This document shows, one piece after another, positions 4,842 to 39,867 of a stretch of 39,867 nucleotides of DNA (position 1 is the first letter of the stretch; each line of letters begins with the position of its first letter). Made by a program: the position numbers and the translations under genes. This stretch comes from a virus: the IMG/VR virus record IMGVR_UViG_3300045988_181388, positions 1 to 39,867 of that record; one strand, 5' to 3'. The notes under the pieces were generated by a model. It had not been told where the DNA came from. It saw only the letters and a list, made by a program, of their open reading frames with translations, and did no database searches.

Positions 4842-5008
4842 ACGAGCGTGAATACCTTATCAGGCGGGCAGATTGCATTTCTAAGGCGTTTTTACAGTCT
4901 AATGAGTATAAGTGCCTATCCGATGAGAAAAGACAAGATTTAGCCGTGTTTGCGGTCTTTGTAAAAAACTATTTAAAAAAGGAGACGCGGGAAGATGAAA
5001 GTAACTAA
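4829..5008 (+). CDS. Hypothetical protein (59 aa)
   Basis: The internal ATG 4829 of track ORF 4730..5008 is preceded by GAGGTG. Confidence 0.5.
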   Translation: MEQMNEREYLIRRADCISKAFLQSNEYKCLSDEKRQDLAVFAVFVKNYLKKETREDESN

Positions 5009-5678
5009 AGCGCATTGTTTTTTTGAGCAAAGCGGAACATTTAAAAATGAGTTTAAAAAACTCGGAATCGAAGCGGAAGATTATGACATTCGGAATGACT
5101 TCGGGGAGACGGACAATGTGGTCGATTTAATGAATGAGATAGCATACGCATATTATCTCGATGAAAAGACCGTTTTTGATTATATCCATGCAGGCGAAAT
5201 AATCTTTGCTTTTTTTCCTTGCACACGGTTTGAAAACCAAATACAATTGGCTTTTAGAGGGGAACAATATCAAGACAAGAGCAAAGATGAAATTTCTAAA
5301 CTTGAAAGGGGTATGAAACTTCATCTTGAACTTCATAACTTGTATAAATCAATATCGATGTTGGCGATAGTGTGTTTGAAAAAAAATATTCCGCTCATAA
5401 TTGAGAACCCGTATTCGACGGCGCATTATCTGACGAGATATTGGTGTTTAAAGCCGAAAGTTATTGACATTGACAGATCGCGGCGCGGAGATTTATTTAA
5501 AAAACCGACGCAGTATTGGTTTATCAATTGCGAACCCAGTAAAAAAATATTATTTGAGCCTGTTGAAATTCCAGGCGGGGAAATAAAAATAATCGAAAAA
5601 ACCTCAAACAAAGTAGAGCGTTCGATGATTACTTCGGAATATGCAAGGCGGTTTATAAAAGAGTTTATTTTAGATTAA
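4995..5678 (+). CDS. Compact C5-cytosine-methyltransferase-like protein (227 aa)
   Basis: Ordered motifs resemble C5-MTase motifs: I (CFFEQSGTF), IV with a Pro-Cys (FAFFPCTRFE), VI (PLIIENPYS), and later RSRRGD / TQYWF / ERSMITSEYARRFIKEF. The protein is too short for a normal target-recognition domain. Confidence 0.5.
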   Translation: MKVTKAHCFFEQSGTFKNEFKKLGIEAEDYDIRNDFGETDNVVDLMNEIAYAYYLDEKTVFDYIHAGEIIFAFFPCTRFENQIQLAFRGEQYQDKSKDEISKLERGMKLHLELHNLYKSISMLAIVCLKKNIPLIIENPYSTAHYLTRYWCLKPKVIDIDRSRRGDLFKKPTQYWFINCEPSKKILFEPVEIPGGEIKIIEKTSNKVERSMITSEYARRFIKEFILD

Positions 5679-5697
5679 AAAGGAGAAAGAGTAAAAA

Positions 5698-6117
5698 ATG
5701 AAAATTAAAGACGTAAAAATCGGAATGAAAGTTATAGGCAACGATGTTGCCGATGAATATTATCTTTATACAAAAAAAGGATATATAGGAACTGTCGAAG
5801 CGGTTTGTGGTGATTATATTTATATACGAGGTGATGACGACGGTAAAACCTATTCAGTTTATCCGAAAGCCTTTGACAAATACGAAAAAGACGAAGAGGT
5901 TTTAAAAGTTTATCGCTCGGCGAACGGATACTATGTAGAATATAACGGTCAGATAGTGGCAGGTTCTCGTTGTCACCCTAACGACAAATTCAACGAACAG
6001 TTTGGACTTAACCTCGCGCTTCGGAGATTCTGCAAAACCTTAAACGATAGGACTGTTGTTGAGCAAAAGACGGTTACAAGAACGATTCTTAAGGTTAATG
6101 ATTTAGTTGGGGAGTGA
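5698..6117 (+). CDS. Hypothetical protein (139 aa)
   Basis: SD AGGAG lies upstream. The C-terminal motif SRCHPNDKFNEQFGLNLALRR recurs in phage proteins of unknown function (from memory). Confidence 0.6.
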   Translation: MKIKDVKIGMKVIGNDVADEYYLYTKKGYIGTVEAVCGDYIYIRGDDDGKTYSVYPKAFDKYEKDEEVLKVYRSANGYYVEYNGQIVAGSRCHPNDKFNEQFGLNLALRRFCKTLNDRTVVEQKTVTRTILKVNDLVGE

Positions 6118-6197
6118 AGTTATGTTTTTAAATGAAGAAGAACAATGTAGACGAACTTTTGAAGAAATATAACAAATAATACAAGAGGAAAGCGAAA

Positions 6198-6728
6198 ATG
6201 AAAGACTTAAAAGTTAATTGTGCTATAGGCGATGAGGTTTATAAAATTTGTACAGAATGCAAGTACGGACTTAACGGCGAATGCCATTATTATAACGCTG
6301 ATAGATATAGCTCTTGCTATAATACTGAAAGCGTAAAAATTTATCCAGACGGAAGTTATGATCAAGGCGAATTGCAGGTCGTAAAAGTACGGGTTTGTAA
6401 AAATATGTTTTTTATTGCAAACGAATGGTTTAATATTGCTTATTTTTTTGATAAAACAGAAGCCTATAAAGCAATGGATGAGTATGCGAAAATTAGAAAA
6501 ATAGAATCAATAAAAGACCGTGTTGAACAATTTATGCGTTGGCATGCAAGGCGTTATACAGGTGTTAATTTTAGAGATAAGTCAGTAATAACCTTTTACT
6601 GCCCGATTTGTCGTTTTGAAACAAAGGAATTTGAACGAAACGTCGCAGATGAGTATGGCATTCCAGAATATCATATAGAGTATTGCCCTGTTTGTGGCAC
6701 AAGGAGACAGAAAAATGAAAAGGAATAG
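6198..6728 (+). CDS. Cys-rich (zinc-ribbon-like) hypothetical protein (176 aa)
   Basis: SD AGAGGAAAG lies upstream. Cys motifs are CTECKYGLNGECH and CPICRF..CPVCG. Confidence 0.6.
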   Translation: MKDLKVNCAIGDEVYKICTECKYGLNGECHYYNADRYSSCYNTESVKIYPDGSYDQGELQVVKVRVCKNMFFIANEWFNIAYFFDKTEAYKAMDEYAKIRKIESIKDRVEQFMRWHARRYTGVNFRDKSVITFYCPICRFETKEFERNVADEYGIPEYHIEYCPVCGTRRQKNEKE

Positions 6729-7029
6729 AAAGAAACGAACGGAATCAAAGGAATTGAAGAGCTTAAGATTTAAAAAGTCACTTATTATTATCGCCATGAT
6801 AGTAATAACGCTTTTATCGCTTAGCGGCGAAGCTGTCGCTGTTATTCATCAAATTAAGCTTCAAACCGAGAGATTCGGGGCTGTAATGCAGTTTGCGTAC
6901 ATATGGAATTTATACGATTTATTTAGTCTGACGCTTTTAGGACTTGCGGGGAATCTTCCGCTGTTGGTAAAACTCGACGATTTAAACGAACAAATTGAAA
7001 GAGAAATTTTTTTAAAAAGAGGATATTGA
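6715..7029 (+). CDS. Membrane protein (104 aa)
   Basis: ATG 6715 follows AAGGAG. The N-terminus is basic, followed by TM segments LIIIAMIVITLLSL and LFSLTLLGLAGNLPLLV. Confidence 0.55.
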   Translation: MKRNRKKRTESKELKSLRFKKSLIIIAMIVITLLSLSGEAVAVIHQIKLQTERFGAVMQFAYIWNLYDLFSLTLLGLAGNLPLLVKLDDLNEQIEREIFLKRGY

Positions 7030-7030
7030 A

Positions 7031-7255
7031 ATGAAATGCAGAGAAATTACTGTAACGATTGAAGAAGATATTGTAGACCTTGACATAGCAACAAGAAAGA
7101 AGTTTATGAAGCCTTATCAATTAAAATGCGTAATGTACGATGAAAATATCGCAGGATTTAATAGCGCTTTAGATAGTGAAATGGTAAAAATGAGAGCGTG
7201 CGAGATGTTGGATAAACTCAAAGAAAGTATAAAGCAAGGAGTGGTTAATTTATGA
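7031..7255 (+). CDS. Hypothetical protein (74 aa)
   Basis: Tightly packed ORF in the early operon. Confidence 0.55.
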   Translation: MKCREITVTIEEDIVDLDIATRKKFMKPYQLKCVMYDENIAGFNSALDSEMVKMRACEMLDKLKESIKQGVVNL

Positions 7256-7545
7256 ATCAGACAATCAACGATTTACTCACCGAATTTGACAAAATGGGCT
7301 TTGCGCCTACAAATGTTTGCGACAACCCCGAAAGAAAGGCAAAATTATGGAAATCGGCGTTAGTGTACGAACTTGGATTACTCTTAGATGAACATGCCGC
7401 AATCAGAAAAAAAGAGGTTGAAGAGTTTGCCGAAAAGTTGAAAGCAAAAGTTCTCGACAAAACGTGCATAAATAAAGATTTCAACATAAATATTAGCGAC
7501 ATATACAAAATGATAGAAGAGACTTTAAAGGAGTATGAGAAATGA
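7252..7545 (+). CDS. Hypothetical protein (97 aa)
   Basis: ATGA start/stop overlap with the upstream gene. Confidence 0.55.
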   Translation: MNQTINDLLTEFDKMGFAPTNVCDNPERKAKLWKSALVYELGLLLDEHAAIRKKEVEEFAEKLKAKVLDKTCINKDFNINISDIYKMIEETLKEYEK

Positions 7546-7826: not shown

Positions 7827-8007
7827 AAGCGAAGAGTTGAACGCCCTTTTAGGGCATAGAGTAAAAATTACGCTTTTCGACGACACAATCATAACGGGCG
7901 TATTAACTCGCGCAGAGTGGAAGCCAGGTCGGTACGAATGCGAAAATTATACTTTCCGCAAAACACACGTTAAGAAAATCGAGGTGGTAAAATGGAATCA
8001 GTTTTAA
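7810..8007 (+). CDS. Hypothetical small protein (65 aa)
   Basis: SD GGAGAATGAAAG context; overlaps both neighbours. Confidence 0.5.
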   Translation: MKYSHESEELNALLGHRVKITLFDDTIITGVLTRAEWKPGRYECENYTFRKTHVKKIEVVKWNQF

Positions 8008-8531
8008 TATCAATTAAACCCGAATGGTTAGAAAAAATCATAAGAGGCGGGAAAACAATCGAGGTGAGGAAGTCCGCGCCGAAAGAAGTACCGTTTAGAG
8101 CGTATATCTATTGCACGAAATCAAAGGAATATGAAGTAACCGTAGATGAGGTACGTAACGACGGTAAGGAAAGACATCACAGTGGCAAAGGAAAAGTTGT
8201 AGCGATGTTTGTTTGCGATAGGGTTGAGGTATTTACACCGTCAGAATATGGAATAAAATTTAAAAGATTTAAAGCATTGCACGAAACAGGTTTAACCGTT
8301 TCCGAAATGAGAGAGTACGCAAACGGCAAGCCCCTCTACGGATGGCATATAACCGATTTGAGGATTCTTCCTCGACCGCAAGATTTAAGCATTTATTCGG
8401 GCAGGAAGAGAGTTTTAAAAGGTGAAAAAGTCGAAATAGAAAAGCCCTGCATTTTCGGCAGCGGCAATAGGCTCAAATGGAAGCCTATACCGTTAACCCG
8501 TCCGCCGCAGTCGTGGCAATATTTATACTAA
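7992..8531 (+). CDS. ASCH (PUA-like) domain protein
   Basis: The N-terminus LISIKPEWLEKIIRGGKTIEVRK and the later GKVVAMFVCDRVE resemble the ASCH signature (from memory). Confidence 0.6.
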   Translation: MESVLISIKPEWLEKIIRGGKTIEVRKSAPKEVPFRAYIYCTKSKEYEVTVDEVRNDGKERHHSGKGKVVAMFVCDRVEVFTPSEYGIKFKRFKALHETGLTVSEMREYANGKPLYGWHITDLRILPRPQDLSIYSGRKRVLKGEKVEIEKPCIFGSGNRLKWKPIPLTRPPQSWQYLY

Positions 8532-8542
8532 GGAGAGCAAAT

Positions 8543-8890
8543 ATGAAAAAAGAGATAAAAAAAGAAAAAGTTGTAAATTTTATAATTATTTTAGTTACGG
8601 TTTTGGTTGTATGCGCCCTTGTTTTTGTTTATTTAAAAGTATTAAAAACAAAGCGGATTGAAACAGCGGAGAACGTTCCGACGGCTTCATGGTTTGAAGA
8701 AGACTTAAAAGACCTATTCATGACGGAGAGCGTTCGCGTTATAGATGTAAACGACAAGATAAGCGAGCGGGCAATCGTTACCGTGGCGGTTACCGAAGTT
8801 AACGGAAGCGATAAGTATTACCATTGTTTGTATAGAGTAAAAAGCGTAATGGGAATCGGCTACGTTTGGGAACTTGAGAGATATATATAA
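8543..8890 (+). CDS. N-terminally membrane-anchored protein (115 aa)
   Basis: ATG 8543 follows AAGGAGAG. The N-terminus MKKEIKKEK is followed by the TM segment VVNFIIILVTVLVVCALVFVYL. Confidence 0.6.
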   Translation: MKKEIKKEKVVNFIIILVTVLVVCALVFVYLKVLKTKRIETAENVPTASWFEEDLKDLFMTESVRVIDVNDKISERAIVTVAVTEVNGSDKYYHCLYRVKSVMGIGYVWELERYI

Positions 8891-8945
8891 AAGCAATAAG
8901 AATCCTGGGAATTGAAAGACACAAACAATTAACCGAGGTGAAACA

Positions 8946-9413
8946 ATGAACAGAATAGAAGTCAAGGAGTATTTACGAAGATATAAGAGAGCATGCTCGG
9001 ATTATGAGAGGGTTAAATATAACCTATACGCCGTTAATAACGACCTTTACGGATTACAAGTCACGAAGTATGATAAAATACCCGTACAAGGCGGAAACGG
9101 CGTTAAAGACCGTTTAGAGGGGCTTATGGATAAGTCTGAAAAGCTTTCAAAGCAGCTTAACGAACTCGGGGAGAAGAAAGACGCAATAGAAGAAGAAATC
9201 GAGCAGTTTATCCGCGCGCTTAATAATCCCGATTGGGAAAATATACTGTTTGACTTCTACATAAAAAATATGACCTACACCGAAATTGAGAAAAAAGGCG
9301 GCTACGCTTGGGGAGTTCCGAAAAATATAACTTCGCTTGCATGCGTCCGCCTGGCTCAGATATGGACGGCAAGAAAGTTAATCGCCGAAGTTAAAGAAGA
9401 AACCCATTTGTGA
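8946..9413 (+). CDS. Late-gene regulator, DUF1492 / sigma-70 region-4-like (RinA/ArpU-type position)
   Basis: Last gene before the terminase module. The N-terminus is EYLRRYKRACSDYERVKYNL, the middle is coiled coil, and the C-terminal HTH reads ILFDFYIKNMTYTEIEKKGGYAWGVPKNITSLACVRLAQI. Confidence 0.55.
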   Translation: MNRIEVKEYLRRYKRACSDYERVKYNLYAVNNDLYGLQVTKYDKIPVQGGNGVKDRLEGLMDKSEKLSKQLNELGEKKDAIEEEIEQFIRALNNPDWENILFDFYIKNMTYTEIEKKGGYAWGVPKNITSLACVRLAQIWTARKLIAEVKEETHL

Positions 9414-9432
9414 AAGAAATTTTCATAAATCA

Positions 9433-9474
9433 ATTACCGAAAATTACCTAAAGTTACTTTTCAAGTGCTATAAT
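9433..9474 (+). promoter_or_regulatory. Candidate late promoter: three RTTACY repeats phased at 10 bp plus an extended -10 (TGcTATAAT)
   Basis: ATTACC at 9433, ATTACC at 9443 and GTTACT at 9453. TG at 9466-9467 and TATAAT at 9469-9474. There is no good -35 hexamer. Confidence 0.5.
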
Positions 9475-11360: not shown

Positions 11361-13114
11361 TGGGTTTAAGAGATTTTTTTACAAGGCGGCGGTTAAACCG
11401 CTTGCAAAGGGATTTAGACATGTTAAGGAATACTATAAAATTTAATCCGTATGCGATAACGATAACCGATAACGAGACTGATAAAGCCTTTTCGGAAAAG
11501 ATAACGGAATACCGCGTCTGGAGTATGGGGAACGCCTATATTTTGCGGCGGTTCTTTCTCGGCACAGTGCAGGAGTACGGCACATGTAATTACTTTTGGA
11601 CGCGTGCGCCGCTTCATTATCGCATGCTTCATAGCGGACTCCCCGGGCTTATATGTTCGAAAATGCCGAGAGTGCTATTCGGCAACGGCATATCTCCTAC
11701 GGTGTCCGTTTACAAAGACAACGGCGACGTGGATAAGACAAAGACAAAGACGGCTACCGATTACGCGTTACAGCTTATCGATAAGGTTAATTTACGAGAC
11801 GTATTGACCGAATGCGCCACGAATGAGAGCTGGGGCGGTCACTCGTTTATAAAATTTTCTTACGATACCGAGTTGTCAAATTATCCGATTATCGAAGCTT
11901 CGGATATTATGTCAACGGAAGTAGTCAAAGAGCGCGGCATTACCGTAGCGATTATTTTCAAAACATGGTACGAGAAAGAGAAAGGGCAGAATACAGGCTT
12001 AGGAAGTCGCAAATACCGCCTTGACGAGATTTACACGACCAACGACAGCGGGGACGCGGTTATTCGTTATGAGCTTTACGAGACTTCGACGGGCGAAGAT
12101 AAGCGTGTGCCGCTTAACTCTATACCCGAAACGGTTAAGGTTGTTGAAACAGTAAACGAGAACGACGAGATAGTATTTAAAGGCTTACAAGGCATGCTTG
12201 CTTTTGAAAAGCCTAACCGCTTGCCGTCGTTAATGTTCCCGCATTCGAACTACGGTGCTTCCGACTTTGAGGGCGCGACCGATTCATTCGACGCGGTAGA
12301 CGAAGCGTATTCGACGATTATCAACGAGATACGAGACAACAGAACGTTAAGATACTTCAAAAGTACGGCGTTCAGAAGAGACAAGGACGGCAAAGTTATA
12401 ACACCCGATGACGGCTTTACGAAAAACTATGTTTACACCGAAAGCGACGTAGACCAGGAGCAAGGCGGCGAAAAAAACCGCATGATAGACCAGGTAAACG
12501 ACAAGACGGAAGAGCATAAGCAGAAGTATTTAACGGCTGTTACGGTGGCTTTAAACAAGGCGGGCTTATCTCCTTACTCGATAGGTATAACAGGGCTTGA
12601 AAGTATCAATCAGAGCGCAGAGAGCCAACAGGAGCGCAACAAGGTAACGCTTGAAACGCGCAAGGCAAAACTTGAGCTTTGGAAGCCGTATCTTTCGGCA
12701 GTATTAACAAAGCTTTTAGCATTTAATACATACCTTTTAAATACGGTAGGCGCAAAGCAAGACGATTTACCGCTTGAAGATATGGATATAACGCTGTCAA
12801 CTGTAACGGTCGATTTCGGCGAGTATTTGCAAGATACCGACAAAGACCTTGTGGATATTTGGGGACTTGCAAAATCGCAAGGCATATCGTCCACGCAAAA
12901 CGCCGTTCGTGAGCTTCATAAGGATTGGACGGAAAAGCAGATACTCGACGAAACAAATACGATTGCATTCGAGCAAGGCATGGCTACGGACACGCCGAAC
13001 GGACTTCCCGAGCTTACGGGCGTTGACATGGGCGACGATGAAAACGACGAGGACGATAAAGACAAGGGCAAAGACAAAGACAAGGACAAGGACAAGGGCG
13101 GTGATACCGCTTGA
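11360..13114 (+). CDS. Portal protein
   Basis: 584-aa ORF directly after terL (ATAATG overlap) and before the MuF-like gene. The C-terminus is an acidic/KD-repeat tail. Confidence 0.8.
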   Translation: MGLRDFFTRRRLNRLQRDLDMLRNTIKFNPYAITITDNETDKAFSEKITEYRVWSMGNAYILRRFFLGTVQEYGTCNYFWTRAPLHYRMLHSGLPGLICSKMPRVLFGNGISPTVSVYKDNGDVDKTKTKTATDYALQLIDKVNLRDVLTECATNESWGGHSFIKFSYDTELSNYPIIEASDIMSTEVVKERGITVAIIFKTWYEKEKGQNTGLGSRKYRLDEIYTTNDSGDAVIRYELYETSTGEDKRVPLNSIPETVKVVETVNENDEIVFKGLQGMLAFEKPNRLPSLMFPHSNYGASDFEGATDSFDAVDEAYSTIINEIRDNRTLRYFKSTAFRRDKDGKVITPDDGFTKNYVYTESDVDQEQGGEKNRMIDQVNDKTEEHKQKYLTAVTVALNKAGLSPYSIGITGLESINQSAESQQERNKVTLETRKAKLELWKPYLSAVLTKLLAFNTYLLNTVGAKQDDLPLEDMDITLSTVTVDFGEYLQDTDKDLVDIWGLAKSQGISSTQNAVRELHKDWTEKQILDETNTIAFEQGMATDTPNGLPELTGVDMGDDENDEDDKDKGKDKDKDKDKGGDTA

Positions 13115-31581: not shown

Positions 31582-32028
31582 ATGCACCGCGAACTTATAC
31601 ACGATATCATTAAACATGGTTCTGACAGTCAAATGGAAGAGCTAAAAGACGTTTTAATCGATTTAATCGACGACGTTAAAAAGGACGATAAACAAGAATA
31701 CAAGGCTATCGAGATAAGGCTTTATCATATCCTTTACGGCGACAAGCTTTGCGAAAAGTACGCAAAAGAGTGGGTTAAGAAGCTTGAGCGCAACGACGGC
31801 GGCACGGGCGAGAAGTGGAGTATCGAACAAACGGAATCCGTTCGGCAGAATTACGCGCCGCAAGCCGATAAGTGGGAATGGTACGCGGTTTTAAATTCGA
31901 TTTATTCCGATTACTACCATGAGAAATTTGATAATACAATATATTATCAGCTTGCAAAAGATTTCATAACCGACAAGGACGCTGTGCGCGATAAAGTCCT
32001 CGCGTATTATATGTATATCGTCGGATAA
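31582..32028 (+). CDS. Hypothetical protein (148 aa) of a family common in Firmicutes prophages
   Basis: AKEWVKKLERNDGGTGEKWSIEQTE..LNSIYSDYY resembles a recurrent uncharacterised family (from memory). Confidence 0.6.
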   Translation: MHRELIHDIIKHGSDSQMEELKDVLIDLIDDVKKDDKQEYKAIEIRLYHILYGDKLCEKYAKEWVKKLERNDGGTGEKWSIEQTESVRQNYAPQADKWEWYAVLNSIYSDYYHEKFDNTIYYQLAKDFITDKDAVRDKVLAYYMYIVG

Positions 32029-32034
32029 AAAGAC

Positions 32035-32059
32035 AGCTACCGAGAAAACCTCGGTAGCT
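32035..32059. terminator. Bidirectional terminator between convergent genes
   Basis: 10-bp stem agctaccgag / ctcggtagct, with T-tracts on both strands. Confidence 0.8.
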
Positions 32060-32066
32060 TATTTTT

Positions 32067-32510
32067 TTAGTCGTGATAAGGTCTTTCCAATTTATCAACA
32101 ACCGCGTAGGCGGTTATGTCGTTCGGAAGAATTTTCCCCGAAAGCCAATTTTCCAAAGTCCTCTGCGGGACTTTGAGATATTTTGCAAATTTAGGAACGG
32201 TTAAATTGTACTTGTTACGATAAGCGTTTAATCTGTCGTCAAGGTCGAAGTAAATCGGATCATAACTGAAATGAAAGTCATTAGCCGCTTCTTCGTTATA
32301 ATCGTCGCTGCCGTAATCGTCAAACGTCTTATAATTAACGTCGTTCGGAATCTCATTTGAGCGAAGTTCTACACGATAACGCGAATCTTTACATCTGTCT
32401 TTTTCATTGCGAGCGTATTCAATCGCTTCCTTTTTATCAAGAGTTCTAAGCTCTTCCCATTCATCACTGGTGCCGACATTGCTTACAGAATATACCGTAT
32501 ATAATTTCAT
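32067..32510 (-). CDS. Operon gene 3: unknown N-domain fused to a C-terminal XRE/antitoxin-type HTH (147 aa)
   Basis: LTVPKFAKYLKVPQRTLENWLSGKILPNDITAYAVVDKL resembles HigA/MqsA-type HTHs (..rTlqnWE-G-r-P..). Confidence 0.65.
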   Translation of the reverse strand: MKLYTVYSVSNVGTSDEWEELRTLDKKEAIEYARNEKDRCKDSRYRVELRSNEIPNDVNYKTFDDYGSDDYNEEAANDFHFSYDPIYFDLDDRLNAYRNKYNLTVPKFAKYLKVPQRTLENWLSGKILPNDITAYAVVDKLERPYHD

Positions 32511-32523
32511 AATAAATCTCCTG

Positions 32524-32715
32524 TTATTTTACTAAGGTTACATTCCAACCTTTTGCTCTATATGTTTTTAAAAAACTGCCATTATACGAAAGCATCATAA
32601 ATTCGGGGATTCCGAACGCCTTTGTTTTCGGCGTACTTTCAAGCTTTATAACGTCTTCGCGAATTTTAGCATTAAGTTCAAATTTTATCTTTCCGTTTGT
32701 TGCTGTAACTTTCAT
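32524..32715 (-). CDS. Operon gene 2: small beta-rich protein (63 aa)
   Basis: ORF with an SD, 13 nt upstream of gene 3. No motif recognised. Confidence 0.55.
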   Translation of the reverse strand: MKVTATNGKIKFELNAKIREDVIKLESTPKTKAFGIPEFMMLSYNGSFLKTYRAKGWNVTLVK

Positions 32716-32760
32716 TTTTAATATCCTTTGCGGGGATTAGCCGCCCCGCTCGGCTTTTGT

Positions 32761-32958
32761 TTATTTATTTAAAGCGTTTAAATATGCTTTATATTGAGCT
32801 TCAACAGCGGTCATCGCTTCTTTGCTTTCTTTATCAAATTGAGACGAGTAATAATTTATCGCCGTGCAAGCCCATTCTACGAAGTCGGCTTTTTCTTTTG
32901 CTGTTCCGTTTTTTGCTATTTCGATTGCTTGATTGATTGCTTGTTCTAAATTTTCCAT
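32761..32958 (-). CDS. Operon gene 1: small helical protein (65 aa; alternative start at 32994)
   Basis: ATG 32958 lies 8 nt after AAAGGAG. The track start 32994 would be almost leaderless relative to the promoter. Confidence 0.55.
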   Translation of the reverse strand: MENLEQAINQAIEIAKNGTAKEKADFVEWACTAINYYSSQFDKESKEAMTAVEAQYKAYLNALNK

Positions 32959-33005
32959 TTTCATTTCTCCTTTGGGGTTTTCCCCCTCGCTCATCTTGTA
33001 CCTAT

Positions 33006-33034
33006 ATTATACCACCACCGTGGCGGTATGTCAA
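33006..33034 (-). promoter_or_regulatory. Perfect consensus promoter TTGACA-N17-TATAAT with an imperfect palindrome in the spacer
   Basis: On the minus strand, TTGACA is at 33034-33029 and TATAAT at 33011-33006. The spacer contains ACCGCCAC-g-GTGGTGGT (7/8 symmetric). Confidence 0.75.
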
Positions 33035-33071
33035 CAAAAATGAGGGGGTATTTAAAAAAAAATTAAAAATT

Positions 33072-33093
33072 TTTTAGCAACATTTTAGCAACG
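33072..33093. repeat. Arm-type repeat set 1 (ttttagcaaca x2)
   Basis: The 21-mer ttttagcaacattttagcaac is identical at 33072 and 33314. Confidence 0.85.
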
Positions 33094-33220
33094 AAATTTT
33101 TTAAAAAGATTTTTAGAAATATAGAGAAACGAAGTAAAAAGACGGCAAAAACCGATTAAAAAAGGGTAAACAAAGAAAAACAGGGCTTTATATTCAACCC
33201 CTGTTATCTGCACCAATATA

Positions 33221-33249
33221 AAAAGGCTATCGTTTGTCGATAGCCTTTT
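33221..33249 (-). terminator. Hairpin terminator downstream of int
   Basis: Stem of 10-12 bp, aaaaggctatcg / cgatagcctttt, with T-tracts on both strands. Confidence 0.55.
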
Positions 33250-33292
33250 TTCTTAGGTTTTATCTGTGATTTTGCGATTTTTATATGCTTGC

Positions 33293-33314
33293 ATTTAAAC
33301 AAAAATGTTTAAAT
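33293..33314. repeat. Perfect 9-4-9 palindrome ATTTAAACA-AAAA-TGTTTAAAT
   Basis: Read directly. It abuts arm repeat set 2. Confidence 0.85.
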
Positions 33315-34578: not shown

Positions 34579-34968
34579 TCATCTCCTTATAAATCCTATG
34601 TGAGGATTATATAAATCCCATATCAGAAAAAAAAGTAATACGGCGATCATCGCCACAATAGTAATAAATTGCGCCTTGATGAGCCTGTTTTTATCTCTTA
34701 AACTCCGTTCGTAAACGGTGCAAAGTTGTTCTACAGACTTTGGAGAGATATGCTCGCTGTTATCAGCATTAAGCGAATCGCCTTTAATATCGTCCGCCGA
34801 GCCGCCCAAAGCCTCAACAATTGCGATAACGGTCGTCACGCCCGGGTCAGGCGTTCTCCCCGAAAAAATTCTTTTCACTGTCGAAATCGGCACGCCGCTT
34901 TTATCGGCTATGTCTTGATAAGTCATTTTCGTTTCGTCTTTTAAGGCTTGCATTTTTGTTAAAATCAT
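34579..34968 (-). CDS. Membrane-tethered XRE-family HTH protein (129 aa)
   Basis: The HTH is MTYQDIADKSGVPISTVKRIFSG and the C-terminal TM is FITIVAMIAVLLFFLIWDL. The gene ends 6 nt upstream of int. Confidence 0.75.
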   Translation of the reverse strand: MILTKMQALKDETKMTYQDIADKSGVPISTVKRIFSGRTPDPGVTTVIAIVEALGGSADDIKGDSLNADNSEHISPKSVEQLCTVYERSLRDKNRLIKAQFITIVAMIAVLLFFLIWDLYNPHIGFIRR

Positions 34969-35342: not shown

Positions 35343-35367
35343 AAGGGTAGTTGATAAGTGGTTTTTA

Positions 35368-35397
35368 AGCCGAGGTTAAATGCCTCGGCTTTTTTTG
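35368..35397 (+). terminator. Intrinsic terminator
   Basis: Stem agccgagg / cctcggct followed by T8. Confidence 0.75.
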
Positions 35398-35413: not shown

Positions 35414-36871
35414 TTATGATTTATCGGGTAATAAAGTAGTTTTATTTGTTTTTTGTAAGTAAGATTCTTTTTTTCTGATATAATATTCATAATCATGATT
35501 AACCATAACATAATGAGCAATAGCAATATCGCATACCTTTATAGCCATGTCGAAGTCTTTTCTTCTTTCATATATATTTACAAGTTTATAAAATGAATCT
35601 GAATGATATCCGTCGAGTTCGTTTGTATGACTGAAAATCTCGATATCTTGCCAACATACTTTTATTATGTCTTCCATTATTGCAGGATTGGCTCTGAATT
35701 TGTAAATTTTAGTAATTAAATCTTGCAAGAAGTAATGTTGTCCGACATAAGCCGTGCATTGATATCCCCTGTTTTTATATATATCTTTTTTGGCATAATG
35801 TTGGTCGCGAACTTTCATATAATCATAATAAAGTTTTTCCATATCGGGCGCAAGTGGTTCGGGGGCTTTTATATATTCTTTTGTTTCTTTTAAATGAGCT
35901 TTTACGGCTTCATGTGCGTATTGTAAGATTTTAAGCCCTTCACCGTAAAATCGTTCGCTCATTACTTTAGGAATGGGTTGCTCAGGAAGAGACCAGTTTA
36001 AGTAAATACGCTCAGAAGTAAAATCGGGATTTTCAACAAGAAAGCTGTTAAGATTTAAAGATTCTGATTGATACGTTTGAATTAAATATTCTTTTATTTT
36101 TGATATAAATATTGGGGCATATTGTTTTGTGTATGTATCTGATTTAAACTGAAATTCTTTTCTATATTTAAAAATGTCATCGGCTGTAAAAGGTCTTTGG
36201 CAAATAACAGATAAGGAACAAAAAGCATTAAGATTTGCGCAATCGGTTACATCGTCAAAGTTATTTAAAATAAGTTCCTTGTTTTGATATAAAATTAAAC
36301 TATATATAAGGGTATTAGACGTGTAATTTAAAAACAATTTTTCATTATACGCTTTTCGTAATTTTAAAATAGTATTAAACGCTTTAACAAATTGTCCTTT
36401 GTACAAATGACGTTCCAAGCCATAAAGAAATAAAAAGACATAAGAAAGCTTGTGTTTGCCCGAATATGGGTCTTTCAAAAATTGAATATAGTTATATCTT
36501 TCATAAGGGTTTAAATAAACATAACATGGCGAACGATGTGGTGCTGAATCATCATAATCTGCGGGCGGAATAACAACGGGAATATCAAGATCAATCATGC
36601 TCGGTTCAAATATTTCGTTTTCTTCTGCTTCTTCGTCGGATAGATATCTTTTAATATGCTGTACTTCTATGTTTTTGTGCGAGCCGTTATAAAACCATAA
36701 CAAGTTAAAAACATCTTTATCTATTCCGATATTATCAAAAGTATATTGAATTTTTAACCTTTCAAATTCTTCTTTAGACAACTTAAAAGAGCAAACATCG
36801 CAAAGCCCGTCTTCTAATTTTAAAAATATTCCCCATTTGCCGCAGTTTTTACATTTTTTTATTATACTCAT
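35414..36871 (-). CDS. Zinc-ribbon / TerB-N-like / helical C-terminal domain protein (485 aa); candidate lysogen-expressed defence or exclusion factor
   Basis: The N-terminus has CKNC..CDVC. Residues about 88-156 read FEPSMIDLDIPVV..SPCYVYLNPYERYNYIQFL..LSYVFLFLYGLERHLY, resembling the TerB-N hallmark (from memory). The C-terminus is TPR-like (FYKLVNIYERRKDFDMAIKVCDIAI). The gene is markedly AT-rich by eye and lies 19 nt downstream of the repressor gene. Confidence 0.55.
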   Translation of the reverse strand: MSIIKKCKNCGKWGIFLKLEDGLCDVCSFKLSKEEFERLKIQYTFDNIGIDKDVFNLLWFYNGSHKNIEVQHIKRYLSDEEAEENEIFEPSMIDLDIPVVIPPADYDDSAPHRSPCYVYLNPYERYNYIQFLKDPYSGKHKLSYVFLFLYGLERHLYKGQFVKAFNTILKLRKAYNEKLFLNYTSNTLIYSLILYQNKELILNNFDDVTDCANLNAFCSLSVICQRPFTADDIFKYRKEFQFKSDTYTKQYAPIFISKIKEYLIQTYQSESLNLNSFLVENPDFTSERIYLNWSLPEQPIPKVMSERFYGEGLKILQYAHEAVKAHLKETKEYIKAPEPLAPDMEKLYYDYMKVRDQHYAKKDIYKNRGYQCTAYVGQHYFLQDLITKIYKFRANPAIMEDIIKVCWQDIEIFSHTNELDGYHSDSFYKLVNIYERRKDFDMAIKVCDIAIAHYVMVNHDYEYYIRKKESYLQKTNKTTLLPDKS

Positions 36872-36890
36872 TACATCACACCTTATTGTT

Positions 36891-37253
36891 TTATTTTTTT
36901 GCTTTTACACCTTTAACCAAAATATTAAGCGTATCGGCTATCTTTTTTAAATCGTCTGTAGATAAATTCGATAACGTATCAATATCAAATCCGAGAGCTT
37001 TAAGCCTTTTTTCGGTTATAATATTTTCTCTATTTTCGTTTGTGTTATCATAATATTCCCACCCTGTTAAGTATGCGGGCGAAACCCCTAAAGCTTTTGC
37101 CAACTGTTCAACTGAAGGTAGTGGCGGGGTCGACAACCCGAGTTCAATCTTATTTATAGCCGATAAAGAGCCGTAGCCGCATTTTTCGGCAAGTTCTTTT
37201 TGAGTTAAACCTTGTTCAATCCGTAATTTTTTTACTTTTTCGCCTATAGTCAT
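36891..37253 (-). CDS. CI-like XRE-family repressor (120 aa, no peptidase domain)
   Basis: The HTH is IGEKVKKLRIEQGLTQKELAEKCGYGSLSAINKIELG. The gene is divergent from the consensus early promoter and has SD AAGGAG. Confidence 0.75.
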   Translation of the reverse strand: MTIGEKVKKLRIEQGLTQKELAEKCGYGSLSAINKIELGLSTPPLPSVEQLAKALGVSPAYLTGWEYYDNTNENRENIITEKRLKALGFDIDTLSNLSTDDLKKIADTLNILVKGVKAKK

Positions 37254-37277
37254 TGTCTTTTATCTCCTTGCACGAAG

Positions 37278-37306
37278 AGTATAACCGCAAAAATCCAACT
37301 CGTCAA
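37278..37306 (-). promoter_or_regulatory. Repressor-operon promoter TTGACG-N17-TATACT
   Basis: On the minus strand, TTGACG is at 37306-37301 and TATACT at 37283-37278. Confidence 0.7.
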
Positions 37307-37345
37307 ATAAAATTAGAATTATATTCAAATAATTACTAAAATCGC

Positions 37346-37374
37346 TTGACATTCTATTTTGTGTGTTGTATAAT
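37346..37374 (+). promoter_or_regulatory. Early lytic promoter, perfect TTGACA-N17-TATAAT
   Basis: TTGACA at 37346-37351 and TATAAT at 37369-37374. Confidence 0.8.
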
Positions 37375-37405
37375 TAGCTTGAAATTCAAAAACAAGGAGA
37401 ACAAA

Positions 37406-37687
37406 ATGACACGCGAAGAATTTAATAGTTTAATCGAGCCAGAAAAGACGAAGAGACCGAACGACGAAGATTGGAAGATAATCGAGTTCGTTTATACCTT
37501 TCACCCGTCGATAAGTGAAACACGTGGAAAAGAGCAAATCACCTATTTATATAAAACGTTCGGCATGCGAATCATCAAAGATATGATTCAGACGGCTAAA
37601 AGAGCGGAGGCAATGGAAAAAGAACTTTCCGAACTCCGCGCTAAATACAATAAACTCAAAGACGATTACAACGCTTTGAGCAAATAA
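37406..37687 (+). CDS. First early protein (93 aa), unknown function
   Basis: ATG 37406 follows AAGGAGAA. The track start 37346 is the TTG of the promoter -35 element. Confidence 0.65.
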   Translation: MTREEFNSLIEPEKTKRPNDEDWKIIEFVYTFHPSISETRGKEQITYLYKTFGMRIIKDMIQTAKRAEAMEKELSELRAKYNKLKDDYNALSK

Positions 37688-38123: not shown

Positions 38124-38327
38124 ATGGTAAATTCAAACGCTTTAAAGGGAGCGATAATCAGAGAGGGGTTGACTCAAGTAGAATTGGCTAAATTTGTCAA
38201 CTTAACAAAGCAATCCCTCAATTATAAAATTTTGAATAAAGCAACTTTTAACATAAACGAAGTTGCGATTATTCGAAAGGTTTTAAATTTAAGTTCAGAA
38301 GAACTTATATCCATTTTTTTTGCTTAA
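38124..38327 (+). CDS. Cro-like XRE HTH protein (67 aa)
   Basis: The HTH reads LKGAIIREGLTQVELAKFVNLTKQSLNYKI. Confidence 0.65.
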   Translation: MVNSNALKGAIIREGLTQVELAKFVNLTKQSLNYKILNKATFNINEVAIIRKVLNLSSEELISIFFA

Positions 38328-39445: not shown

Positions 39446-39867
39446 AAGGATTTAAAGCTTTTGAGAAAGGTTTAATTTGCAAAGGTAAGCAATATGCCGA
39501 AAACACGGTATTTGAAGAGCCTGAAGCGATTGTTTGCCGCAAGGGAATGCATTTTTGCAAAAATCCGTTTGACGTTCTGGACTATTATCCGCTTATCGAT
39601 GGTAACGGAGAGTTTTCCGAGTTTGCCGAAGTTGAGGCATTGGACGAGCCTGTAACGAACGATAATAAGAAGTTTTGCTCAAAGAAATTGAAAATTGGCG
39701 CAAAGCTGTCTTTTGCGAACTTTATAGAGGCGGCGGCGAGTTTTGAATTTGAAAAGACCGAAAACGATAAAAAGTCAAATATTATTGGAAATTCGGGCAA
39801 CTACGCAAAGATAGGCTCTTCGGGCAACTACGCACAGATAGGCTCTTCGGGCGATTCCGCAAAGATA
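39442..39867 (+). CDS. 5' part of the junction-spanning gene (continues at 69..287 of the circle)
   Basis: ATG 39442; the frame is open to the window end (142 codons). It starts MKGFKAFEKGLICKGKQYAENTVFEEPEAIVCRKGMHFCKNPFDVLDYYPL and ends in GNYAKIGSS nonapeptide repeats. Confidence 0.8.
   Translation, partial: MKGFKAFEKGLICKGKQYAENTVFEEPEAIVCRKGMHFCKNPFDVLDYYPLIDGNGEFSEFAEVEALDEPVTNDNKKFCSKKLKIGAKLSFANFIEAAASFEFEKTENDKKSNIIGNSGNYAKIGSSGNYAQIGSSGDSAKI
39800..39867. repeat. Terminal overlap copy B (identical to 1-68)
   Basis: Same 68-nt string as 1-68. Confidence 0.95.

Follow-up and report, generated by a model that had tools for sequence, protein, structure and literature searches.

A stand-alone TerB-N gene in the repressor operon of a temperate gut phage: a candidate single-gene prophage defence

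What does a long, AT-rich gene do directly behind the immunity repressor of a temperate phage? The question is raised by the IMG/VR virus record IMGVR_UViG_3300045988_181388, analysed over its whole length of 39,867 nucleotides (nt), here called the window. On its minus strand a gene for a protein of 485 amino acids (aa), referred to below as the TerB-N gene, follows that of a CI-like repressor. A sequence-only reading had proposed it as a candidate novel, single-gene defence of the prophage, from its resemblance to the TerB-N domain. We find a real and constrained gene whose conserved core is, at the level of family profiles, homologous to the core of SngA, the TerB-like component of the Shango anti-phage system, and which behaves as exchangeable cargo. 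By analogy with known systems, we put at about even the chance that its product, with neither ATPase nor helicase, guards the lysogen from superinfecting phages. The elements of the operon and of the switch that precedes it are the following:

35414..36871, minus strand: TerB-N gene, with an ATG start, 485 aa, AT-rich cargo
36872..36890, minus strand: spacer between the repressor and TerB-N genes, 19 nt, carrying AAGGTG as ribosome-binding site, 7 nt ahead of the ATG
36891..37253, minus strand: immunity repressor of the HTH_3 (XRE/CI) type, 120 aa (Pfam HTH_3, E 5.6e-17)
37278..37306, minus strand: presumed maintenance promoter of the repressor/TerB-N operon, TTGACG-N17-TATACT, with 10/12 consensus matches
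37346..37374, plus strand: divergent early (cro-side) promoter, a perfect TTGACA-N17-TATAAT, back to back with 37306-37278

The layout is operon-like. The two open reading frames (ORFs) are separated by the 19 nt that the sequence-only reading had reported between the repressor stop and the TerB-N start, and its statement that no terminator intervenes agrees with a clean scan of the minus strand, where no terminator-like site is found from 37306 to 35414. The promoter that it had placed ahead of both genes is also present, at a divergent switch, and ends 25 nt upstream of the repressor ATG. A match of 10/12 is by itself within chance (30 sites vs 20.8 +/- 5.1 in shuffled sequence), so that this promoter is credible because of its position, 25 nt before the repressor ATG at the divergent switch, and not because of match quality. 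The 120-aa repressor also matches PHROG transcriptional regulator and repressor families. The TerB-N gene lies in a leftward lysogeny operon, on the strand opposite to all lytic genes. This wiring to the repressor is conserved in sibling phages (loci and proteins used for comparison are given L and P numbers): the TerB-N gene is directly downstream of the repressor, on the same strand, in L001, L007, L008, L121 and L128-L131. The junction is identical in L001, the two ORFs overlap in L007, L008 and L128, and a gap of 3 nt separates them in L129-L131, giving gaps of 3-19 nt or overlaps throughout. In L008 a canonical terminator directly follows the TerB-N gene.

The encoded protein can be divided into three modules:

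36791..36853, minus strand: N-terminal C4 zinc ribbon (C7-x2-C10...C24-x2-C27), with short strands in the AlphaFold 2 (AF2) model
35867..36739, minus strand: conserved core of the TerB-N type, ~aa 45-335, delimited by a deep hidden Markov model (HMM) search, conservation, hhalign and AF2
35444..35842, minus strand: C-terminal helical repeat resembling tetratricopeptide repeats (TPR), ~aa 344-476, with helices in the AF2 model, the most variable part between alleles

The cysteines C7, C10, C24 and C27 correspond to the N-terminal CxxC..CxxC knuckle noticed earlier. Likewise the segment that had been likened to the TerB-N domain (36404-36610, aa 88-156) coincides with the position of the match to the Pfam TerB_N profile (PF13208) at aa 87-158, and a YGLERHL motif (aa 150-156) is located inside the core. 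However, the ~330 helical or TPR-like residues previously taken as one part have to be split. Family conservation and the alignment with SngA give the core a length of ~290 residues, extending to ~aa 335, and only ~aa 344-476 are TPR-like. For this tail the PDB sequence-profile search returned only a marginal match to a consensus TPR (E 0.022); Pfam TPR profiles do not match the 485-aa protein itself, and TPR_1 is found in 13/100 relatives. Searches of the protein for hydrophobic segments, a signal peptide or transmembrane segments were negative and it is predicted to be soluble. It belongs to no NCBIfam or PHROG family, and PF05099 (TerB proper) does not match at E <= 1.

The relationship with SngA emerges from profiles. 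The PADLOC SngA model aligns with the 485-aa protein at E 1.7e-6 (aa 86-389, model positions 64-341 of 528). Among the relatives recovered by an exhaustive search, 99/100 match TerB_N (best E 9e-20) and 99/100 match SngA, and the close alleles P0002-P0006 carry precomputed PF13208 matches. When the family profile was compared by hhalign with a Shango-type SngA, namely the RefSeq 'TerB N-terminal domain-containing protein' of a three-gene Shango-type operon on a Salmonella plasmid, window residues 86-335 aligned with residues 133-395 of 769 at 99.1% probability (E 1.2e-18). TerB-N homology is weak for the single protein and solid at the family or profile level, where the TerB-N similarity proposed by the sequence-only reading is borne out. 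The AF2 models are of high confidence (predicted local distance difference test, pLDDT, 91.2 over the full length, 94.5 when the core was modelled by itself), and the core is a confidently predicted fold that has no solved relative.

Composition also sets the gene apart. Its GC content (0.302) and its GC content at third codon positions (0.247) are both the lowest of the 38 ORFs (mean ORF GC 0.426, standard deviation 0.049), with a GC of 0.30 for the gene vs 0.41 for the window, and NCG codons amount to 2.3% vs a mean of 8.3%. The impression gained by eye of an unusually AT-rich gene with few NCG codons was therefore accurate. The further suggestion that the gene was acquired recently is not supported: alleles which have diverged to a synonymous divergence (dS) of ~1.1 are all equally AT-rich (GC 0.28-0.31), which supports a foreign origin but makes the recency of acquisition not demonstrable. 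The ratio of nonsynonymous to synonymous divergence (dN/dS), 0.11-0.28 vs three alleles, indicates purifying selection on every allele. Full-length alleles occur on many independent contigs of ~40 kb, some of them from human gut samples.

Comparison of the sibling phages reveals how the gene is carried. Its close alleles (95%, 74-76% and 58% identical) are all found directly after the repressor, in phages assembled many times as ~40-kb contigs with a backbone (a 48-aa ORF, a 129-aa helix-turn-helix (HTH) protein and the integrase) of 55-97% identity. The repressor can be exchanged for other immunity types (33-41% identity), and the TerB-N gene, itself at 74-76%, keeps its place behind repressors of changed type (38-41% identity). 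Conversely, in L001 the repressor (97.5%) and the integrase (96.6%) are nearly those of the window while the TerB-N protein is only 58% identical, with a dS of 1.13 for its gene vs 0.05 for the adjacent repressor. Along this allele the identity is 96% in the zinc ribbon, drops steeply beyond residue ~60 and is down to 40% in the TPR tail. The dS contrast and the drop in identity mark an exchange of alleles, whose breakpoint falls within the gene, immediately behind the zinc ribbon.

The gene can also be missing. L123 and L124 lack it. The slot of L123 has the same size, and that of L124 (5540-6190) holds a HicA-like ORF and HicB in place of the TerB-N gene; HicB is confirmed, while the HicA call for the 84-aa ORF is unconfirmed, with no PDB sequence match. 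In L128, HicA and HicB (11632-12213) follow the TerB-N gene, and a 57-aa ORF there has a precomputed HicA_toxin match; this copy is on an 86-kb contig and is probably integrated. An orphan HicB-like gene follows in L129-L131, which include a Hadza gut sample (9771-10175 in L129), and a Gp49/HTH_37 pair in L007 (9622-10241) and L008. Repressor swaps, allele swap, absence, and replacement or addition of HicAB together define a variable, exchangeable cargo slot, presumably read from the repressor promoter, and the view that the TerB-N gene is accessory and foreign is supported. The slot after the repressor is, in addition, a hotspot for toxin-antitoxin-like genes in the sibling phages.

The stand-alone condition of the gene was examined by comparison with Shango, an experimentally validated anti-phage system composed, according to its published description, of the TerB-like protein SngA, the ATPase SngB and the DEAD/DEAH helicase SngC. 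This agrees with the composition given in the sequence-only reading. The Salmonella plasmid locus (L126) contains the textbook three genes, for a TerB-N protein, an ATP-binding protein and a DEAD/DEAH helicase, as in published Shango. The window protein lacks a counterpart of the C-terminal half of SngA (residues 396-769) and has its TPR-like tail instead. The N-terminus also differs, a zinc ribbon here and a hydrophobic helix in the SngA-type protein of L126, as does the location, a prophage lysogeny operon here and a chromosomal or plasmid defence island for Shango. No SngB was found in the phage: the neighbours of the gene are the repressor and the 48-aa ORF, and the best tblastn match of the L126 ATP-binding protein against the whole window has an E of 1.8. 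No SngC was found either, the best match of the L126 helicase in the same search having an E of 0.068. Since SngB and SngC are absent, the system is not Shango and membership was rejected; the gene does stand alone in this phage, as had been proposed.

The family to which the gene belongs is large. Word-indexed searches returned only 5-6 relatives and suggested a rare family, a conclusion overturned by the exhaustive profile search, which recovered 2262 clusters at 50% identity with E <= 1e-3, 505 of them at E <= 1e-30. A search of IMG/VR for close relatives of the protein returned none. The modules on both sides of the core vary. Among 156 family representatives, 29 N-termini (19%) are membrane-anchor-like and 18 are CxxC..CxxC zinc ribbons, and P0039 carries an N-terminal fusion to a TM2 membrane domain. 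The C-terminal module may be TPR (13/100), an Mrr nuclease (P0101) or a HicB-like domain (P0060). Members were also found in the methanogens Methanocorpusculum, Methanogenium, Methanoculleus, Methanobrevibacter, Methanosarcina and Methanomassiliicoccales (loci L060, L074, L088, L092, L093, L096, L099, L102 and L108), so that the stand-alone TerB-N family spans both prokaryotic domains.

A census of gene neighbourhoods was made at 105 non-redundant loci, drawn from IMG/VR and from a set with a single genome for each species, in Clostridia, Bacilli, Spirochaetes, Bacteroidota and several methanogens. A same-strand HTH gene occupies position -1 in 19/101 loci vs 5.4% at other positions (binomial P 1.8e-6). 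A positional link to repressors is seen across the family. Integrases are located downstream 24 times and upstream 6 times. The Pfam counts for upstream neighbours (HTH_3 16, Peptidase_S24 5, M78 4, CI repressor 3) go with three repressor types that the family follows: a short HTH protein, a self-cleaving S24 repressor, and an HTH protein with an M78 ImmA-like protease. A cultured example is the pBNS11 prophage of Ligilactobacillus salivarius, in which an S24 repressor is followed after 18 nt by a 486-aa 'TerB N-terminal domain-containing protein', then by DUF3800, MazF and the integrase. Some relatives adjoin a type III-like restriction-modification pair or an Eco57I methylase and DUF262, and at two family loci the next gene downstream encodes an Ltp lipoprotein. 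Among the immediate downstream genes of 96 family loci, neither a helicase nor an ATPase recurs. The arrangement had been called unfamiliar. This stands as far as the literature goes, where we found no paper on a stand-alone TerB-N gene in a prophage lysogeny operon; it does not stand for the genomes, since many members of a large family show the same arrangement, the L. salivarius prophage being an example with RefSeq annotation. RefSeq labels such proteins merely by domain.

The layout itself has precedents. BstA of prophage BTP1 and RexAB of lambda are abortive-infection genes located downstream of cI and sharing the cI promoter (PMC8585504), so that a defence gene sharing the repressor promoter is a known layout. 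The window resembles them in that a mosaic hotspot immediately behind the prophage repressor holds an accessory gene, with presumed expression in the lysogen (PMC8585504). It differs in that there is no sequence relationship, that the hosts are not the same (gut metagenomes here) and that the defence role is here only a candidate one. A self-immunity element comparable to aba was not found either, no search aimed at one having been made. PADLOC models other than that of SngA were not matched, and the protein belongs neither to BstA, Rex or Sie nor to any other catalogued defence family. The superinfection-exclusion gene Ltp is part of the lysogeny module of Streptococcus phages (PMC3952083). 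Like Ltp and the Sie genes of Streptococcus and Lactococcus phages, which are transcribed in the prophage state (PMC3952083), the TerB-N gene is placed between repressor and integrase in a leftward lysogeny module. However, those proteins are small, membrane- or lipid-anchored and block DNA injection, whereas the product here has 485 aa and is predicted to be soluble. With TerB proper (PF05099), BnzA of Bunzi and DinB of Dionysus, the protein shares its name and a proposed link through the Ter superfamily. Bunzi and Dionysus, unlike the gene described here, comprise several genes including membrane or pore-forming partners, and PF05099 is unmatched in the window protein.

In the explanation that we favour, the gene is an exchangeable accessory cargo gene (a 'moron') that occupies the position immediately 3' of the immunity repressor, and in lysogens the two are most likely co-transcribed. 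Its product, predicted to be soluble, has three modules, the C4 zinc ribbon, the TerB-N-type core of ~290 aa and the variable TPR-like tail, and would most likely protect the lysogen, by exclusion or by abortive infection. The conserved TerB-N core would be the working part, while the swappable C-terminal module (TPR-like here, Mrr nuclease or HicB-like in relatives) may set recognition or output. We infer a defence role because the only validated function of TerB-N is defence and because BstA and RexAB (PMC8585504) and Ltp (PMC3952083) provide precedents. The links to conflict systems, that is the Mrr fusion and the restriction-modification and Eco57I methylase/DUF262 neighbours, were counted in the same direction.

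Several observations weigh against this explanation. The Pfam TerB_N match of the protein itself (20.0 bits, E 6e-4, aa 87-158 vs profile positions 30-101 of 207) is under the 25-bit gathering cutoff, and four nearly invariant family positions (113, 124, 143 and 149) deviate here from the consensus. No recognisable effector domain was found in the 485-aa protein. Foldseek retrieved nothing at E <= 1e-3, either with the full model against PDB and BFVD or with the core alone against PDB. The top matches of the full model are generic TPR/Sel1 arrays (E 8e-3, TM-score 0.19-0.26); the core, with a best match at E 0.39 (TM-score 0.23), has no structural relative. Without a structural analogue, no mechanism is suggested by structure. 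In the census, some two thirds of the genome copies lacked both an integrase and an upstream HTH gene in the surrounding 6 kb, and its numbers, obtained with a simple ORF caller of our own and iterated HMMs, are approximate. Finally, P0078 is fused at its N-terminus to a Phage_Mu_F head domain, with matches to PHROG minor head proteins, and in the Heliusvirales gut phage L010 (PV036459.1) a homologue (7908-9434) lies between the large terminase and the portal. A homologue also adjoins the large terminase at two other loci. These virion-module copies and the Mu-F fusion indicate roles other than lysogen defence.

Among the alternatives, lysogenic conversion, in which the protein would help the host against envelope, metal or other stress and not against phages, seems unlikely. 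The earliest links made for TerB-family proteins were with the membrane and with resistance to tellurite and stress, and 'membrane surveillance' has been suggested for the Ter superfamily. The membrane-anchor-like N-termini of 19% of the family representatives would fit such a function, as would the location in a lysogeny operon, common to other conversion genes, with an expression that is here presumed. However, the 485-aa protein has no hydrophobic segment and matches neither TerB proper (PF05099) nor other ter genes, and the phage carries no ter operon. Moreover, its slot-mates are toxin-antitoxin pairs and the wider neighbours are restriction genes, not stress genes.

The protein might instead take part in lysogeny control, as a sensor or anti-repressor partner of the repressor that governs induction, analogous to ImmA next to ImmR. 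In every close relative the gene is the next one behind the repressor, position -1 is enriched in HTH genes across the family, and the 120-aa repressor, which lacks an S24 self-cleavage domain, needs some induction route. We nevertheless give this possibility a low probability. Because the family follows three repressor types, it is an addition to induction systems and not a substitute for one; siblings with the same integrase backbone do without the gene; and many members are found outside recognisable prophages, beside restriction systems, or fused to a nuclease.

An equally improbable role is that of a factor serving the phage itself, either a delivered or early protein or a counter-defence that mimics or titrates Shango-like systems. 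The relative placed behind a Mu-F minor-head domain, in the position of cargo domains, is consistent with delivery, as are the homologues beside the large terminase in the Heliusvirales phage and at the two further loci. In the window, however, the gene is in the leftward lysogeny operon behind the repressor promoter, opposite in strand to the lytic genes, and gives no indication of packaging.

Still less probable is a toxin-like or addiction module that would stabilise the prophage and be held in check by the repressor or by a HicB-like partner. Such a module would account for the sharing of the slot with HicAB and Gp49/HTH_37 pairs, for the orphan HicB-like gene that follows in L129-L131 and for the HicB-like domain fused in P0060, but the window has no HicB-like partner, and the protein, in which no toxin domain was detected, greatly exceeds typical toxins in size. 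A spurious or decaying ORF, which very low GC, many stop-free frames and the lack of a PHROG or NCBIfam name could have suggested, is practically impossible and was excluded by the dN/dS of 0.11-0.28, by conservation (full-length alleles on many independent ~40-kb contigs, 2262 related clusters) and by a confident fold (AF2 pLDDT 91).

A broader proposal can be advanced, tentatively and with the odds against it. Stand-alone TerB-N proteins may be single-gene agents of immunity or exclusion that form a large class so far unrecognised, expressed from repressor operons in prophages and integrative elements of Bacillota, Spirochaetota, Bacteroidota and methanogenic archaea. The core alone would act as both sensor and effector, and the N-terminal (anchor or zinc ribbon) and C-terminal (TPR, nuclease or HicB-like) modules would tune location and specificity. 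Should this be true, the working part of Shango would be revealed as well. TerB-N belongs to a validated defence system, Shango, and a one-gene version would provide a minimal system for the role of the core. The natural alleles differ mostly in one module, and the gene occupies a defined slot, presumably driven by the repressor promoter, in the genome of a 40-kb gut phage. With the order repressor, TerB-N gene, integrase recurring in distant lineages, the known prophage-encoded protections would gain a widespread family, which would matter for competition among phages in gut communities. If the gene is not defensive, its strong positional link to repressors still needs explaining.

The remainder of the lysogeny module, beyond the 3' end of the TerB-N gene, is composed of the following features:

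35367..35391, no strand assigned: GC-rich hairpin common to the convergent genes, kept in L001 and L121
35196..35342, plus strand: small convergent ORF bounding the cargo slot, 48 aa, 55-90% identity in L001, L008, L123 and L124
35151..35179, minus strand: promoter for the pair formed by the 129-aa HTH protein and the integrase, a perfect TTGACA-N17-TATAAT (sigma-70)
34579..34968, minus strand: 129-aa HTH protein (Pfam HTH_3) with a C-terminal hydrophobic helix
33340..34572, minus strand: tyrosine integrase (Pfam Phage_integrase, E 1e-14), far boundary of the lysogeny module

The 48-aa ORF is conserved in all sibling phages and ends at the strong hairpin, which has its T-run on the strand of this ORF. 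Since the T-run is on the plus strand only, the hairpin is a weaker terminator for the repressor/TerB-N transcript. The gene of the 129-aa HTH protein is 6 nt upstream of the integrase (stop 34579, integrase start 34572). This protein accompanies the integrase in the siblings (64-91% identity) while the switch repressor is exchanged, and it may regulate the integrase.

On the other side of the operon, the TTG at 37346, taken mechanically as the start of the ORF 37346-37687 (plus strand), in fact belongs to the -35 hexamer of the early promoter. The first early gene really begins with the ATG at 37406, giving a protein of 93 aa with a 93-aa homologue in L001 and L121 and with no recognisable HTH. 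A DUF739-like Cro candidate is located further on (38124-38327). The switch region 37308-37390 contains the imperfect repeats AAATTAGAAT / ATTCTATTTT, and a 22-nt direct repeat, with copies 61 nt apart, overlaps the early promoter; as operators these repeats are only suggestive.

The window is a complete temperate tailed phage of the gut. It begins and ends with an exact 68-nt repeat (1-68 = 39800-39867), from which it can be concluded that the genome, of ~39.8 kb, is complete and circularly closed. This terminal overlap falls within a 27-nt tandem coding repeat (GSSGDYAQI-like units), also present in L124 (1713-2612), and the number of repeats at the genome ends may be influenced by assembly. 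Besides the tyrosine integrase, the phage encodes portal, major head, minor head, tail and replication-initiator proteins. No tRNA was found in the window, and a megablast search with the structural genes against annotated phages gave no match.

Two other AT-rich regions were noted in the window. One is a patch (5000-7500, GC 0.34-0.36) in the early or replication region, where the ORF 6198-6728, with a lower share of NCG codons (1.1%) than any other ORF, may likewise have been acquired. The other is a stretch that separates the integrase from the end of the late genes and contains a perfect TTGACA-N17-TATAAT with an extended TG at 33006-33034 (minus strand). The interval 32000-33300, between the integrase and the late genes, is probably the attP region. 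Near this promoter, a 147-aa ORF on the minus strand (32067-32510) may be another gene expressed in the lysogen.

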